Shown in pieces: positions 15,781 to 21,021 of a stretch of 48,709 nt of DNA (position 1 is its first letter; every line of letters begins with the position of its first letter). Source of the stretch: a virus (lineage: Duplodnaviria; Caudoviricetes); the IMG/VR virus record IMGVR_UViG_3300022697_000048, positions 1-48,709 of that record. One strand, written 5' to 3'. The notes beneath the pieces were generated by a model. The model had not been told where the DNA came from. It saw nothing but the letters and a program-made list of their open reading frames with translations, and did not search any database. The position numbers and the translations under genes were made by a program.

Positions 15781-15966
15781 ATGAATGAGAAAACAGCCAG
15801 AAAGTTAAAAATGCAGTACGAGTCTGATTTGAGCATGTGCAATGACGACCGTGAAAAAGTAACCCTAAATAATCAGTTAGCGACTATTATCAAGTGGTTG
15901 ATCCATGATGCTGAGCACCAGATAGAGAATGACCCAATTTACGACAATTATAGACATGCAGCATAG
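15781..15966 (+). CDS. Hypothetical protein
   Basis: 61-aa ORF ending the accessory cluster. Confidence 0.6.
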   Translation: MNEKTARKLKMQYESDLSMCNDDREKVTLNNQLATIIKWLIHDAEHQIENDPIYDNYRHAA

Positions 15967-15996
15967 ATAGCCGCTATCTCTGGTGGTGGTGGCTAT

Positions 15997-16595
15997 CTCA
16001 CACTTAAGAAACTACATTACAGGGGTACGCCAAGCTACTGATTAATAACGATGGCATAATATGTCAATGTCAGTAACTACTTGATATATAAGATTTACCC
16101 CGACTTTCGTTCACAAACTACATTACAGGGGTATCCTAGTCCCCTGATTACATTACTTATTTCTTTTATTTACCCCAATACCCCGACTTTTCCCGAAACT
16201 CCCCCGCGCCCGCCGTGTGCCTGTGCTGCTGGCTATCTCTAGCTGGCTATCTCTAGCTGGCTATCTCTAGCTGGCTATCTCTAGCTGGCTATCTCTGTTT
16301 TCATTTCCTATAGCAATATTTAATAATTTAGGGTTAAATAAGGGTATATAAAAAGAATAGTACATAGAATCAATACGTTGGGATACCCCGTTAATGTGTT
16401 TTCACGGGGTATTTTTGGGTTAAAAAAAAGACGAATGTCCATTAAATCAATACGTTGGGATACCCCTGTCGAGTAGAGTCTTAAGTTGTTGCTATTATCT
16501 TACTGTAATCAATATGTTACCGATTATGGATAATTTGCCGTTGTTATAGATCAATGGGTTAGGATACCCCTGTAATGTAGTTTCTTAAGTGTGAG
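15997..16595. repeat. Non-coding locus bounded by a perfect 31-bp inverted repeat, with internal iterons (candidate origin or packaging control site)
   Basis: CTCACACTTAAGAAACTACATTACAGGGGTA at 15997-16027 and its reverse complement at 16565-16595; partial third copy at 16115-16138. Confidence 0.9.
16228..16296. repeat. 14-bp tandem repeat x5 (GCTGGCTATCTCTA)
   Basis: Units start at 16228, 16242, 16256, 16270 and 16284; followed by an AT-rich tract. Confidence 0.95.
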
Positions 16596-16623
16596 TTGTG
16601 CCGGTAGCCGTATGTGGTATTAT
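16596..16623 (+). promoter_or_regulatory. Probable extended -10 promoter
   Basis: TTGTGC-16-TATTAT with TGn extension; ATG 6 nt downstream. Confidence 0.5.
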
Positions 16624-16629
16624 GTGGCT

Positions 16630-17361
16630 ATGTTTAAATTCGATGACAAAGAGATACAGCGTTACGAAAGGGAGATTAAAGCATACGCACATAAAGCGTT
16701 TCCCTTTGTGACAAAAAATACATTAAATAAAGCAGCCTTTAGAACTCAAAAGATTGCCCGTAAAGATGTGCGCGTTAAGATGGTATTGCGTAACAATTTT
16801 ACTGAGCGAAGTATTCAGGTGAACAAGGTAGAAGGTTTAAACGTTAGAACACAGAAATCATCTGTAGGCTCAACACTTGATTATATGTTAGATCAAGAAT
16901 TTGGAACTGTGATTACAAAAACAGGTAGCAGAGGTGTAAGCATACCCACTGGTTTTAGTGCTGGCCAACAAGGGTCACAACCACGCACACGGCTACCACG
17001 GCTACGTAACACAATGCGTCGTATTCGTTTGAAGGGGAAAAACAAACGTATGGGTAAGACACGTAAACAACGTTTGTTAAGAAGTGTTCAAGAGGCTGTA
17101 AATACTGGGAACCGTTTCGTGTTCCTAGATCTCGGTAGACGCCAAGGCATATTTAAGGTGGTTGGTGGTCGTAAAGGTGTTAAGCGAGGGTGGCCGAAAA
17201 ATGCACAGTTAAAAATGGTGCATGATATGACCTCTCAAAGTGTGACGATTCCCAAAAACCCATGGCTCGAACCAGCATGGCGACATGGGATAATTGGAAT
17301 ACCGGATGATTACAAGGACGCTTTGTTATTCCAAATTAACCGGTTTGGATTGTTCAAATAG
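16630..17361 (+). CDS. Basic protein, probable neck/tail-completion-type morphogenesis protein
   Basis: K/R-rich; TLNKAAF..., VGS..DYM..QEFG and terminal P.NPWLEPA recall the HK97-gp10/gpZ-like pattern. Confidence 0.5.
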   Translation: MFKFDDKEIQRYEREIKAYAHKAFPFVTKNTLNKAAFRTQKIARKDVRVKMVLRNNFTERSIQVNKVEGLNVRTQKSSVGSTLDYMLDQEFGTVITKTGSRGVSIPTGFSAGQQGSQPRTRLPRLRNTMRRIRLKGKNKRMGKTRKQRLLRSVQEAVNTGNRFVFLDLGRRQGIFKVVGGRKGVKRGWPKNAQLKMVHDMTSQSVTIPKNPWLEPAWRHGIIGIPDDYKDALLFQINRFGLFK

Positions 17362-17548
17362 TTACAGCTTTTTTGAATGCCTGTATAGCTCGTGTTTTAG
17401 CTGCTGTAGATAGCAGCAAATAACAATCAATAATTATCGCTAGTCTCTCCTTGTCCTTGATGGGCATAAACTTACGTAATTCTTTGTTGTTGTCACCGGC
17501 ACGTGCAGCACGTGACCGTCTTTGTTTCTCTTTGTCTGTTAGTTTCAT
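17354..17548 (-). CDS. Small basic hypothetical protein, possibly DNA-binding
   Basis: MKLTDKEKQRRSRAARAG...; ATGA coupling to the upstream ORF. Confidence 0.6.
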   Translation of the reverse strand: MKLTDKEKQRRSRAARAGDNNKELRKFMPIKDKERLAIIIDCYLLLSTAAKTRAIQAFKKAVTI

Positions 17549-17730
17549 CTTGATATCCATGTAATGGGTGAGCATTTGATTGAGTCACGTGCTGATGTGT
17601 TGGACTTCCAGCATACGTGGTCCTCTTTGCTGGCCTGTTCAGCTTGTTCTCTAGTGTCGTACGACTGTTGTGATATAGATAACACACTTACAACCCTATA
17701 TCGACGATTGATTTCAACGATCTCATTCAT
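17545..17730 (-). CDS. Hypothetical protein (possibly leaderless)
   Basis: ATG 6 nt after the -10 box of the minus-strand promoter. Confidence 0.6.
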   Translation of the reverse strand: MNEIVEINRRYRVVSVLSISQQSYDTREQAEQASKEDHVCWKSNTSARDSIKCSPITWISR

Positions 17731-17736
17731 ATGTAA

Positions 17737-17765
17737 ACAATAGTCTAACGACGTGTCACTGTCAA
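17737..17765 (-). promoter_or_regulatory. Repeated promoter, variant copy with partial operator
   Basis: Minus strand CCTTGACA-GTGACACGTCGTTAGAC-TATTGT (17-bp spacer). Confidence 0.75.
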
Positions 17766-17804
17766 GGTGTAGTGATCCCCTAAGTGGTGGTTAGCCTGGT
17801 GTCA

Positions 17805-17846
17805 CCAGCTCCAAATAGATAGCCAGCTCCAAATAGATAGCCAGCT
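17805..17846. repeat. 18-bp tandem repeat x2.3 carrying the reverse complement of the 14-bp array core
   Basis: CCAGCTCCAAATAGATAG repeated; contains AGATAGCCAGCT twice. Confidence 0.9.
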
Positions 17847-17900
17847 AAAACACCCTTATTAATGCCCCCGTACAGCCATATCATAGATGTAGTCAGTAGC

Positions 17901-18019
17901 TAAGTCATTGATAGATAAAGAGTTATGATTAAATAATATGTTGAGGTTGTTTATAAGTTACTGATAGTCAAGGAGTTTATATCTAGAGCTGGCTATCTCT
18001 GTTCTGTAAGTCATTGATC
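17901..18019. promoter_or_regulatory. Cluster of IHF-consensus-like sites upstream of terS
   Basis: TAAGTCATTGATA (17901), TAAGTTACTGATA (17954) and TAAGTCATTGATC (18007) match the reverse complement of WATCAANNNNTTR with 0-1 mismatch. Confidence 0.6.
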
Positions 18020-18178
18020 TATAAGGGAAAAATAAAAAAGGTACTGTAGAAAAAGGTGCCTATATGCCGTTTTGATGCTGACCGCGTAATTCGAACATTT
18101 TTTGATTTTTGGCCAATCGTTTACCTGTGAGGAGATGGTGTGTTACAGTGGTGCCGTTGACTATCAAGGTGATCCCCA

Positions 18179-19060
18179 ATGGCTGTAAAATTAATTACAA
18201 AAGCAGAATTATCACGGATGCTACAGGTAACACCGGCCGCTGTTACTAAAATGACGCGTGGCCCGTTACAAGATACGATGGTCAACACCCGTATAGATAT
18301 GGGCCATCCTGTAGCTGTAGCGTTTTTAAAAAAATGGAACGCAGGCTCACCCACAAAAATTGTTGTTGATGAACTATATGAAACCGCTGTTGCGATATGC
18401 CACAACAGCGGCCGGTGTTCCGCTCGTATGTTAAAAAAGGAGCTACATATCGGAGTAGGGCGCGCTACTAAAATTGTGGCTATGATCAAAGCAGGTGGAG
18501 CGGATAAATTAGTAAAATCACCACCACCGCCACCACCTAAAATTAAACCCATGGTGGTACCCCCACCGCCACCACCTAAAAAACCCAAAGCTACTGGGGT
18601 TACGACACAGGTTGTCCGTAAGAAAAAAGCACAACAAAAATTAAAAACGATTGACCCGGAAGACTTAGACGAATCAAATTCAGTACCGGAAGACTTACGG
18701 GCGTTCGCGCATTACACACTGCAACAATTATGTGATCGATTTGGTAATGAACTGGGTTTGTTAGATTGGCTAAAATCACTGAAGTTGCTAGAGGATGTAG
18801 TAACCGCACAGTTGAAAAACGCCGCTACTGCTGGTGATTTAGTAAGCGTTGAGTTAATTCAACTAGGCGTCATCGACCCTATCAATAAAACATACAGATC
18901 GCTACTGACTGATGGGGCAAAAACTATTGCTCAATCTGTGAATTCAATGACTAAATCAAAGGCTACATTGGTTGAATGTGAGTTAGAGGTTGTCCAGCAA
19001 ATGACATCCTTAATCCAGTCTGCTAAAAATAAAATGACCAAGGCTATCAAAAAAATATGA
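18179..19060 (+). CDS. terS: Terminase small subunit (Nu1-like position) with an inserted FtsK-gamma-like domain
   Basis: Directly upstream of terL; N-terminal HTH ITKAELSRMLQVTPAAVTK; DELYETAV...LHIGVGRATKIV; Pro-rich linker; helical C-terminus. Confidence 0.75.
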   Translation: MAVKLITKAELSRMLQVTPAAVTKMTRGPLQDTMVNTRIDMGHPVAVAFLKKWNAGSPTKIVVDELYETAVAICHNSGRCSARMLKKELHIGVGRATKIVAMIKAGGADKLVKSPPPPPPKIKPMVVPPPPPPKKPKATGVTTQVVRKKKAQQKLKTIDPEDLDESNSVPEDLRAFAHYTLQQLCDRFGNELGLLDWLKSLKLLEDVVTAQLKNAATAGDLVSVELIQLGVIDPINKTYRSLLTDGAKTIAQSVNSMTKSKATLVECELEVVQQMTSLIQSAKNKMTKAIKKI

Positions 19061-21021
19061 TTGAAATTGGTCGTGAGTGGTTGCTAAAACAAATTGATGA
19101 GATTGTTGAATCAATCGAACGGTTAACCCCTACCAAATTTAATGAGGGGAACCGCTACCTACCAAGTTCAGTAACTTCTATACCTGGCTTCCTTAGTTAT
19201 AAAGTAAACCCCTTCATGATCGAAATCATTGACTGCTTTGATGTTGATAGTCAGGTACGTGAGATGAATCTAATGAAGGGTGTGCAGATAACATACACCA
19301 CACTACTCGAATCTATTATGTTGTACTACATGGCACACGTTAAGTCGCTACCTATGATGTACATGACTGCTGATAAGGAACTTGCATCTGCACGTATAGA
19401 GAACAACATAATACCAATGTTGAACCATTCCGGCTTTGCCGACATCATTCGATCAAGTGACGACGGCAACAAACACAAGACAGGTAAGACAGCGCATCAC
19501 CTGCAATGGATGGGCGGTGGGTACATGGTTCCCTTCGGCGCAAAGAATGCAGATAAAATGCGTACGTTTTCTATCTGCATTATGCTTAAAGATGAAATCG
19601 ACGCATGGCTAGACCGTGTCGGTAAAGACGGTGATCCGGACTTACTCAGTGACCACCGCTGTCGTGGGTACTGGGAGCGCCGCAAGATAGCGCGAGGCTC
19701 AACGCCGCTACTCGAGGAAACATCAAAAATATTCCGTCAATACAAACGCGGTGACCAACGCAAGTACAATGTGTTGTGCAAGTCGTGTGGCTTTGCGCAG
19801 GATCTACGGTGGGAGGCTATCAACAAGGATAGTGGTGTAATTGGTGGTATGCAATGGGAAACTGAAGGAGGGATGCTACAACTAGATTCAGTGTGTTATT
19901 GCTGTTCTAATTGTGGCCATGCACACTATGAATATGATAAACGTAATTTGTTTTCACCTGATCACGGCGCACACTGGAAACCCACTAGTGTAGCAGTTGA
20001 ACCCAACATACGTTCATACCACCTACCTGCTTTATACTCACCCATTGGAATGGCCCCATGGTATACGTGCGTAAGCGCCTACCTTGACGGTTGGGATGTA
20101 AAGAAAAAACGAGTTAAGAATTTAGAAAAGTATCAAGGTTTCTATAATAATATTTTAGCGCGTCCATTTAGAATGCCGGGTGATAATGTTGAATTCGAAT
20201 CAGTATCACGCCATCGTCGTCGTGATTATATGTTTGGACAGATACCCAACAAGTATGCCGCTGAGTATTCCGGGTCACCTATTCTACTACTTACCTGTAC
20301 CGTTGATGTTCATAAGAGTAACTTAGCCGTTGCTGTCATGGGTTGGACAAGTGGAATGTGTTGTTACCTAATAGACTACTGGCGGTTCGAGGATGATGAT
20401 TGTTCACAACCCTCATCACCTGTGTGGCAACGATTGCGTAAACTAATTGAGGAAACTACGTACACCGCTGATGATAGTAAACGTTACAGTATAGCGATGA
20501 CGTTTATTGATGCCGGGTGGAAACAGTCTACAGTAACCGCGTTTTGTGGCCAATATCGAAATTCTGTTTTTCCTTCCATTGGGTCACCTGATACAGGTAA
20601 GGTTAAGTCTATACAACAGTTCTCAGAGTTCACCGCTAAGGATGGCATGAAAGGCTACACGATTAAGGTTGATCATTATAAGGATAGGCTTGCACCTGTG
20701 TTGCGTCGCCAGTGGATAGAGGATAGCGGCGACCAAGACGATTGGCATTTTAACGCGCCACTGGACGTCACTGATGATCAACTCAAAGAATTAACCGTAG
20801 AGGTACAACGTAAGGAAACTAATCAATGGGGTGTAGTTAGCTACCGCTGGCACCGGCCGGGTGGCGCTGACAATGAATTGTGGGATTTGTTTGTATACGG
20901 TTCTGCTGCTGTTGAGGTGTTGGCGTGGGCGTTATGTATTGAGCATCTAGAAATGGAGTCGATTGATTGGCGTACATTTTGGAAATTTTTGGAAGAACGC
21001 AAGGTTTACTTTTCTGATTAA
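19057..21021 (+). CDS. terL: Terminase large subunit, lambda GpA family
   Basis: MKGVQITYT, DEIDAW, GSTP, GDQR, CxxC pairs, TVDVH, FIDAG, NELWDLFVY. Confidence 0.95.
   Translation: MIEIGREWLLKQIDEIVESIERLTPTKFNEGNRYLPSSVTSIPGFLSYKVNPFMIEIIDCFDVDSQVREMNLMKGVQITYTTLLESIMLYYMAHVKSLPMMYMTADKELASARIENNIIPMLNHSGFADIIRSSDDGNKHKTGKTAHHLQWMGGGYMVPFGAKNADKMRTFSICIMLKDEIDAWLDRVGKDGDPDLLSDHRCRGYWERRKIARGSTPLLEETSKIFRQYKRGDQRKYNVLCKSCGFAQDLRWEAINKDSGVIGGMQWETEGGMLQLDSVCYCCSNCGHAHYEYDKRNLFSPDHGAHWKPTSVAVEPNIRSYHLPALYSPIGMAPWYTCVSAYLDGWDVKKKRVKNLEKYQGFYNNILARPFRMPGDNVEFESVSRHRRRDYMFGQIPNKYAAEYSGSPILLLTCTVDVHKSNLAVAVMGWTSGMCCYLIDYWRFEDDDCSQPSSPVWQRLRKLIEETTYTADDSKRYSIAMTFIDAGWKQSTVTAFCGQYRNSVFPSIGSPDTGKVKSIQQFSEFTAKDGMKGYTIKVDHYKDRLAPVLRRQWIEDSGDQDDWHFNAPLDVTDDQLKELTVEVQRKETNQWGVVSYRWHRPGGADNELWDLFVYGSAAVEVLAWALCIEHLEMESIDWRTFWKFLEERKVYFSD

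Follow-up and report, generated by a model that had tools for sequence, protein, structure and literature searches.

An FtsK gamma domain fused into a small terminase was described in 2021 by Kazantseva et al. for gp1 of vB_BcM_Sam46 and Sam112, phages of Bacillus (MN604698.1); the paper places FtsK_gamma at the N-terminus and proposes KOPS/SRS-like loading or mispackaging of host DNA (PMC8190038). In Sam46 gp1, the N-terminal gamma domain is complete (profile positions 3–62 of 63) and is combined with Terminase_2, a Terminase_3 large terminase (TerL) and headful packaging. The original prediction for the present locus knew of no described small terminase (TerS) with this domain and put it forward as a candidate for an undescribed system; both points are superseded by that paper, which already contains the fusion together with the same KOPS/SRS-loading idea. 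The kind of fusion is already known, and the family examined here is a new, independent variant. Its gamma domain is wingless, internal and optional, Terminase_2 is missing and TerL is of the gpA type. The similarity to Sam46 is confined to 48 gamma columns, so that the two fusions are independent events.

The gamma domains of FtsK and SpoIIIE (PF09397; structures 2ve8, 2ve9 and 2j5p) share with this TerS a three-helix core and the D-Y and G-x-x-R-A signatures, at an rmsd of 0.5–0.7 Å. However, here there is no wing, helix 3 starts variably, no FtsK motor is attached and no genome-wide skewed motif is present. Single gamma domains bind KOPS poorly and need multimers (PMC3384302), while the loop between helices 2 and 3 binds both KOPS and XerD, with FtsK R1289 as a key XerD contact (PMC5052618). 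Gamma is a mobile module that also occurs in RdgC fusions and in the FtsK of cluster J mycobacteriophages, unlike here outside a terminase. In the cluster J FtsK, gamma is likewise the most variable part (PMC3706429).

On the packaging side, the comparison is with the cos regions (cosQ–cosN–cosB) of lambda, 21 and N15, with which the locus shares a gpA-type TerL and a TerS gene that closely follows the end site. In lambda and 21, specificity is set by TerS residues 20 and 24 and by base pairs 56 and 59 of R3, and the position of the 7-bp lambda cosQ is matched here by a conserved 7-mer about 29 nt before the cut (PMC4669245). Bases in the R-like repeats after the cut covary here with residues of TerS around 20 and 24, a relation established by genetics in lambda and 21 (PMC4669245). 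In contrast with lambda, 21 and N15, there is no sequence or structure match to Nu1, the end has 15–16 nt, an extra gamma domain is present, and two direct repeats 11 nt apart stand where lambda-type cos has three R sites and an IHF site.

A single cultured gamma-bearing member of the family was found, Shewanella phage SppYZU01. Its gp04 (KY622015.1; PHROG 13700), a 'hypothetical protein' in the record and an 'FtsK/SpoIIIE-like protein' in PHROGs, has the same layout at 34% identity, a gamma match of E 1.1e-12 and the same end site. A literature search limited largely to papers available without subscription turned up neither an account of gamma in gpA-type terminases from this family nor one of a located target site; PMC11526630 and PMC7617512 have no content on gamma in terminases.

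The window, meaning the whole stretch of DNA analysed, is 48,709 bases long and corresponds to a whole phage record; the assembly is circular, and its first and last 99 bases repeat each other. The terminase genes and the parts of TerS are the following.

18179–19060, plus strand: TerS gene, 293 residues, in the order HTH, gamma core, Pro/Lys linker, helical C-terminal domain (context, PHROG 13700, synteny)
18179–18340, plus strand: N-terminal HTH, residues 1–54 (weak Pfam HTH matches; Foldseek BldC 6ama, probability 0.77, E 1.5)
18230–18250, plus strand: putative cos-reading helix, residues 18–24 (covariation of columns 18, 20, 21 and 24 with the +52 repeat)
18368–18499, plus strand: FtsK-gamma three-helix core without wing, residues 64–107 (Pfam, AlphaFold model, Foldseek)
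18500–18655, plus strand: Pro/Lys-rich flexible linker, residues 108–159 (sequence; mostly coil, pLDDT 57–88)
18656–19057, plus strand: conserved helical C-terminal domain, residues 160–293 (omega 0.08, best-conserved part of TerS)
19057–21021, plus strand: large terminase of the lambda gpA type, 654 residues (Pfam GpA_ATPase E 1.5e-39, GpA_nuclease E 9e-38)

The gene at 18179–19060 is a small terminase gene, as had been proposed, and belongs to a lambda-type (gpA) phage. It sits between a conserved end site, 110 nt before its start, and the gpA-type TerL, to which it is coupled through an overlap of the two reading frames (18179–19060 and 19057–21021). PHROG 13700 matches it over its full length (E 3.8e-46), the gene order around it is identical in SppYZU01 and Scuro, and in AeroV_348 a distant relative carries the annotation terminase small subunit. 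Downstream of TerL lie a lambda-type portal, an S49 protease, a decoration protein and the capsid, and also a Mu-like baseplate. Matches to gpNu1 families and to Terminase_2 are missing: Phage_Nu1 and DUF1441 give no Pfam match for TerS (DUF1441 appears only in sub-threshold Atlas rows), Nu1 is absent among the structure matches, and Terminase_2 (PF03592) is absent from TerS at E ≤ 1 and from 150 family members at E ≤ 0.01. The C-terminal domain, which is present in all gamma-less relatives and in 8/8 cultured outgroups, may by analogy serve oligomerisation and TerL binding; a complex prediction of TerS 160–293 with TerL 1–310 scored 0.00, with controls not folded.

TerS residues 64–107 are an FtsK-gamma homologue. 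This 44-residue segment lies between the N-terminal HTH and the Pro/Lys-rich linker, as the original prediction had placed it, and the homology it had read by eye is borne out by both profile and structure. Pfam FtsK_gamma (PF09397) matches the segment with E 2.7e-7 over profile positions 4–46 of 63, scoring 30.6 bits for the whole TerS, exactly the curated cut-off of 30.6, and 34.4 for the isolated piece. Furthermore, a family profile built from 150 members matches solved FtsK gamma domains with E 3e-11 to 9e-10, including E. coli FtsK gamma (2j5p) at 3.3e-11. In the AlphaFold model of TerS (mean pLDDT 87.8, pTM 0.47), the predicted gamma segment superposes on 2ve8 and 2ve9 at 0.5–0.6 Å over 44–45 residues, with Foldseek E-values of merely 0.16–0.23 because the match is short.

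The prediction had spoken of a winged helix, of which the three-helix core stands and the wing does not. The Pfam match ends after helix 3, the TerS model shows no strands beyond it, and a crude wing-motif pattern finds a wing in 0/134 family members; the domain is therefore a gamma core and not a full winged helix. The core itself is well conserved among 141 gamma domains (D 97%, Y 81%, C 83%, G 84%, R 96%, A 88%), while the start of helix 3 is variable: at the N position of GYNRA, asparagine occurs in 16% of the 141, with an entropy of 3.55 bits. The helix 3 start is canonical in 11/50 gamma-positive proteins and altered in this genome, with the change from GYNRAAR to GVGRATK as originally described. 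Helices 2–3 are net basic in 50/50 proteins (mean +4.6), and the domain is predicted to be, and probably is, a second DNA-binding module of TerS.

The end site and the short elements between it and the TerS gene are the following.

18040–18046, plus strand: conserved 7-mer GGTACTG in a cosQ-like position, role putative (about 29 nt before the cut; conserved with and without gamma)
18069–18084, plus strand: predicted cohesive end of 15 or 16 nt, starting GTTTTGAT (from relatives' contig ends)
18090–18097, plus strand: conserved element CTCGCACA in diverged form, to the right of the cut
18109–18125, plus strand: direct repeats TTGGCC (18109) and TTTACC (18120), 11 nt apart, R-like, predicted HTH sites (covariation in relatives)
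18128–18138, plus strand: G-rich top-strand box and candidate gamma site, adjoining the second repeat on its right (10 nt with 5 G)
18144–18172, plus strand: -10-like hexamer TACAGT (18144) and SD-like AAGGTGA (18166), by consensus match only

The position of the genome end follows from where related sequences begin and stop. Among 57 related IMG/VR contigs, near-copies included, 31 start exactly at a GTTTTGAT-type motif, 84–186 nt before the gene, and these 31 comprise 23 gamma-positive and 8 gamma-less contigs. From a DNA pattern scan, 30 loci were obtained, 15 of which end 15 nt after the start point and one at 16 nt, while 14 run through. Moreover, the same 15- or 16-mer is found at both ends of 10/23 long related records, three of them gamma-less. 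A filled-in 5' cohesive end appears to be the best account of these shared ends; alternatively, the 15-nt end repeat of the relatives would be a true terminal repeat. The end site is common to gamma-positive and gamma-less relatives. The cohesive-end account is opposed by PD0307, a distant relative that PhageTerm called a P1-type headful packager (PMC10132091), although its record begins at the same end motif.

Two direct repeats follow the cut at about +41 and +52, and the N-terminal HTH is the domain that appears to read them. In the 38/53 loci with a clear repeat (15/53 were dropped), the middle bases of the repeat covary with HTH columns 20, 18, 24 and 21 at mutual-information z-scores of 9.0, 7.9, 7.3 and 5.2, and in the same test gamma columns reach at most 3.1 and C-terminal controls 2.1–3.7. 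The resulting code assigns TTTGC to NPS-type helices, TTGAC to a glycine at position 20, and TTAAC or TTTAC to an alanine there. A two-state form of this rule fits 37/38 loci and 17/19 held-out loci (Fisher p 0.0017; 10/29 held-out loci without a clear second repeat were dropped). When kinship is considered, 4/5 well-supported independent pairs agree and none oppose, an underpowered comparison (p 0.125). This genome conforms, with A20 in TerS and TTTACC at 18120. In the pooled gamma-positive set, some gamma columns reach z 5–6 against repeat bases, with 9.8 for the HTH, as linkage would give. The idea that gamma itself reads the R repeats was considered and rejected, the HTH columns covarying and gamma far less so.

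Gamma is an optional part of the TerS family, being dispensable to it. A full HMMER scan gave 889 homologue clusters at E ≤ 0.001; FtsK_gamma is detected at E ≤ 0.01 in 90/150 aligned members, and a family-specific gamma profile scores the domain as present in 134, absent in 52 and degenerate in 5 of 191 proteins (11/202 with a missing domain were left out). Near-copies above 90% identity were dropped from the family samples, which are biased towards gamma-bearing proteins because matches were ranked against the TerS of this genome. The linker between the HTH and the C-terminal domain measures about 102 residues with gamma and about 45 without. In 8/8 cultured distant relatives (PY6, AeroV_348, VP16C, PD0307, 367.14 and three Nahant vibriophages), gamma is absent and both the HTH and the C-terminal domain are kept. 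A tree computed from the protein minus the insert shows gamma scattered, with 33 changes, at least 4–5 of them forced by strong branches; a single gain with later losses and swaps would be the simplest reading of this unrooted and weak tree.

The domain is functional and under purifying selection, yet fast-evolving and swappable. In 12/12 independent close pairs, pN is lower than pS for gamma; pooled over the pairs, omega comes to 0.24 in gamma, 0.19 in the HTH and 0.08 in the C-terminal domain. The residues differing in close pairs amount to 28%, 13.5% and 7.4%, respectively. In one pair (L020/L080), 22/44 gamma residues differ while the HTH is identical, and here gamma looks to have been exchanged as a cassette.

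It had been proposed that gamma reads oriented GGGGTA or GGCTATCT repeats 0.2–2.2 kb upstream of the gene and so gives the packaging motor its direction. The repeats concerned are the following.

15965–16600, no strand assigned: repeat locus with convergent GGGGTA/TACCCC and a 5 × 14-nt array around an AT-rich stretch, likely origin
17817–18001, no strand assigned: three more GGCTATCT copies, two on the minus strand (17817, 17835) and one on the plus strand (17991)

These repeats are real, with 8 copies of GGCTATCT observed against 0.5 expected, but they are not oriented. GGGGTA occurs 13 times on the plus and 12 times on the minus strand of the genome (3 and 6 within 16000–16600), GGCTATCT 8 and 4 times, and the 14-nt array (16228–16297), flanked by long inverted arms at 15997–16062 and 16530–16595, has a palindromic TAGC-NN-GCTA core. 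Five gamma-less relatives (L102, L278, L289, L294, L299) have a similar AT-rich locus with convergent short motifs and TAGCSGCT-type arrays, and three complete gamma-positive genomes (G004, G033, G066), which lack the TetR/NrS-1-primase module, have the palindromic motif 0, 0 and 1 times outside coding sequence. The upstream repeats, being non-polar and present in gamma-less phages, are unsupported as the gamma target; they were rejected in view of copies on both strands, gamma-less carriers and gamma-positive genomes without arrays. The locus at 15965–16600 is likely a replication origin, putative and not gamma-specific. The P4 origin is a possible parallel.

The strand-biased 8-mer analysis suggested with the original prediction offers no substitute. 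This genome holds one KOPS and no SRS; 45 records have 88 KOPS matches against 102 for a reversed control, which is background level. Over-represented 8-mers shared among gamma-positive genomes were not found, nor was a skewed KOPS/SRS-type motif along this genome or the 45 records, and no such target for gamma came to light genome-wide. The skew of certain words between the strands of this genome resembles coding-strand bias together with a local repeat. It can be said in favour of a directional role that the 180 nt preceding the cut contain at least two AGCSGC-type copies in 12/17 gamma-positive and 2/16 gamma-less loci, a count that ignores kinship, is confounded with the TetR/primase module and takes the gamma-positive label of L308 from a close relative; this genome has one such copy. 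Against it, the upstream repeats would also lie at the end packaged last. A gamma domain that sets the direction of packaging from these repeats or from a genome-wide polar motif is accordingly very unlikely, and since no genome-wide polar motif was found, gamma would not orient translocation along the genome. A weaker version of the orientation idea survives: a strand-polar G-rich box at about 18128–18138 that co-occurs with gamma.

This box was first noticed by eye, post hoc, as one of 19 windows tried by 3 measures, and in the discovery set the window from +60 to +69 holds 4.4 G per 10 nt in gamma-positive loci (n = 32) and 2.1 in gamma-less ones (n = 21). With the window fixed, held-out loci gave 3.67 against 2.18 G (18 vs 11, one-sided p 0.007; 12 candidates in which the cut or the C-terminal domain could not be located were dropped), with neighbouring windows flat. 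In the same held-out loci, the difference in purine content failed to replicate (p 0.14); a cut at G ≥ 4 separates 8/18 from 1/11 (p 0.096). The pooled values are 4.2 and 2.2 G per 10 nt (p 8e-7); the excess exceeds the coding background of each phage and is confined to the top strand and to G rather than C. On the best tree, the box contrast is positive in 10/11 cases and negative in none (sign p 0.002), with only two contrasts on strong branches. Exact GGGNAGGG occurs on the top strand of 4/50 gamma-positive and 0/32 gamma-less loci, and never on the bottom strand. In SppYZU01, the box contains an exact GGGAAGGG (record positions 2336–2343), which is absent from the box of this genome, whose best 8-mer is 2 mismatches from the KOPS consensus.

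The box also lies within a promoter-like architecture that could account for part of the signal. At the usual spacing it lies 18–27 nt before the ATG, so a Shine–Dalgarno sequence is an unlikely cause. Together with a second arm across the -10 hexamer, it makes up an inverted repeat in 12/46 gamma-positive and 4/26 gamma-less loci, a non-significant difference that leaves the inverted repeat insufficient as the whole cause; TACAGT at 18144 has the same offset as in relatives. The spacing from cut to ATG is fixed in 36/46 gamma-positive and 5/26 gamma-less loci (10/82 loci without a usable ATG were left out of these analyses). An inherited inverted repeat together with fixed spacing means that promoter architecture passed on with the gene could yield the G signal. 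The G excess persists in loci without the inverted repeat (3.7 vs 2.0; 32 gamma-positive loci, p 6e-5), and at equal spacing a similar trend is seen (4.0 vs 2.4; 36 vs 5, p 0.06). The box may be regarded as a candidate gamma site on the strength of co-occurrence only.

Taken with the HTH code, these observations suggest a scheme to which we give an even chance: the wingless gamma would give TerS a second, optional hold on DNA, at the G-rich strand beside the packaging signal, with the HTH picking the site. TerL would nick at about 18069 to give the 15–16-nt cohesive end deduced from contig ends; HTH residues 18–24 would bind the direct repeats at +41 and +52, positioning TerL at the cut; and gamma, tethered 10 residues after the HTH, would contact the G-rich box at +60 to +69, on the next DNA turn. 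Gamma would contribute affinity where some gamma-less phages have extra HTH repeats instead, and it may also cover the promoter of the TerS gene itself. An oligomeric terminase could provide gamma multimers. Additional R repeats are found in 16/32 gamma-less and 14/50 gamma-positive loci (p 0.06), with equal counts in the set of 53 loci, so that more R repeats in gamma-less phages are only a trend. The missing wing speaks against a second grip, as does the poor KOPS binding of single gamma domains (PMC3384302). A more specific form, in which the HTH would read the R repeats through its residue-to-base code, a captured segregation reader would read the polar KOPS-like box, and gamma and a third R repeat would be interchangeable, is a tentative possibility.

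The same data can be read with gamma as a non-specific basic aid to DNA wrapping or sliding, the box then belonging to a promoter or hairpin that came along with the gene's 5' half, unread by gamma. This is possible, though we doubt it. It would explain why the base-facing gamma positions are hypervariable while the core and the basic charge are kept, and it agrees with the fixed spacing, -10-like box (42/46) and C-rich bases before the ATG of gamma-positive loci. No covariation between gamma residues and box bases was detected (top z 4.7, at edge columns, against 4.3 for an HTH control), and canonical gamma helices do not differ significantly from others in box G (4.9 vs 3.9, p 0.11). However, the G excess remains without the inverted repeat and tends to do so at equal spacing, as given above, and the box is polar and rich in G triplets, like the motifs read by known gamma domains.

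That gamma is directed at the host, binding host KOPS (in competition with FtsK or to load the terminase for transduction) or touching XerD, is unlikely. The cultured gamma-positive phage does infect a gammaproteobacterium, gamma is the fastest-changing folded part of TerS with a cassette-like swap in L020/L080, the loop between helices 2 and 3 of FtsK gamma binds both KOPS and XerD (PMC5052618), and mispackaging of host DNA was proposed by the Sam46 authors (PMC8190038). Yet a fixed host motif should conserve the reading helix, and a canonical helix 3 start is seen in only 11/50 proteins and not here; the column that appears to map to FtsK R1289 is Arg in 35% and Lys in this TerS; and the predicted fixed ends on both sides would leave scant room for headful host DNA. 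Least credible is a decaying relic without present function, for which the repeated absence of gamma, the 5 degenerate copies and the missing wing can be cited; the omega of 0.24, the D/Y/C/G/R/A core at 81–97% and the retention of gamma in most of the closest relatives count against it.

The choice of viral DNA by the small terminase is settled for few phages only, and this family provides a natural experiment, with hundreds of relatives with and without gamma around one common end site, a residue-to-base code for the HTH and a 10-nt candidate gamma target that can be named. If gamma binds the box, host chromosome-segregation readers would have been recruited more than once into two-part packaging signals, and a two-domain reading would give the first located target of a terminase gamma domain. 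Even if gamma does not bind the box, PHROG 13700, so far labelled FtsK-like, gains a small terminase function, and a 15-nt end site is defined for a large environmental phage group.

Other searches returned fewer members of the family. A single-protein viral scan with TerS returned no relatives, a word-indexed protein search only 3, and a loose DNA pattern for family loci gave mostly chance matches and was set aside. Two scans of 185,579 prokaryote genomes returned 2 and 3 contigs, all from MAGs and with the gene near the contig start, and one further gamma-less copy lies inside a 183-kb MAG contig (L526). Finally, 216 phage records match a family gamma.

A readable residue-to-base code appears to link the helix-turn-helix (HTH) helix of the small terminase (TerS) to the cos repeats, the two direct repeats that follow the cut, across 82 related loci. 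With this code, packaging specificity could become predictable from sequence. Its two sides in the window, together with the predicted end sequence and the neighbouring features, are located as follows.

15965-16600: origin-like locus
17354-17575 (reverse strand): small ORF in the gap that separates the end site from the minor-tail gene
17545-17730 (reverse strand): small ORF in the same gap
18069-18084: predicted counterpart of the conserved 15-nt end sequence, based on the ends of relatives
18109-18125: cos repeats
18230-18250: TerS HTH helix
21040-22875: 611-residue ORF between the large terminase (TerL) and the portal

In ten related phage records (G001, G002, G004, G005, G009, G042, G044, G052, G062 and G066), both contig ends carry the same 15-nt, sometimes 16-nt, sequence, which is conserved although the phage family is divergent. 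It is likely to be a 5´ cohesive end. A listing of the literature on VP16C ends did not address it. The record of PD0307 (region 1-779), a distant relative whose TerS lacks the FtsK-gamma domain, starts at the same end motif; in contrast, a published account describes PD0307 packaging as headful (PMC10132091). PD0307 also has an HNH gene between TerS and TerL.

Upstream of the TerS ATG, by around 10 nt, a -10-like hexamer is present in 42 of the 46 loci with the gamma domain and in 16 of the 26 without it (for example, L001 2340-2366), a position that suggests a nearly leaderless TerS transcript. The window retains the hexamer at 18144 and has an additional leader with an SD-like motif. Inverted repeats flank the hexamer on both sides in five loci (L022, L018, L026, L004 and L599), their arms showing compensating changes (10/10 pairs in L022); a hairpin and a two-armed operator are candidate readings.

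The gamma domain itself appears as if exchanged as a cassette: between L020 and L080, and between L021 and L070, half of the gamma residues differ, while the flanking domains are nearly identical or much closer. PHROG 13700, the family containing this protein, bears the label "FtsK/SpoIIIE-like protein" in the host-takeover category, but gene position and end-site evidence point to a small terminase. The sole copy found deep within a long bacterial contig, a 183-kb Thiotrichaceae MAG contig (NVWZ01000005.1, L526), is gamma-less and possibly a prophage.

Around 670 nt (17362-18030) separate the minor-tail gene from the end site in the window, compared with less than 100 nt in many relatives. 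A Pfam scan of the ORF at 17354-17575 gave no match, and all Pfam matches of the 611-residue ORF were sub-threshold; the cultured Shewanella phage SppYZU01 instead has a 228-residue ORF in that place. Extra DNA lies between the end site and TerS in G009 (1-558) or after TerS, before TerL, in L005, L025 and L038. In every related phage, the AT-rich core of the origin-like locus is flanked by a short convergent motif peculiar to that phage; arrays of the TAGCSGCT type, with a period of 10 nt, accompany the TetR/primase module.
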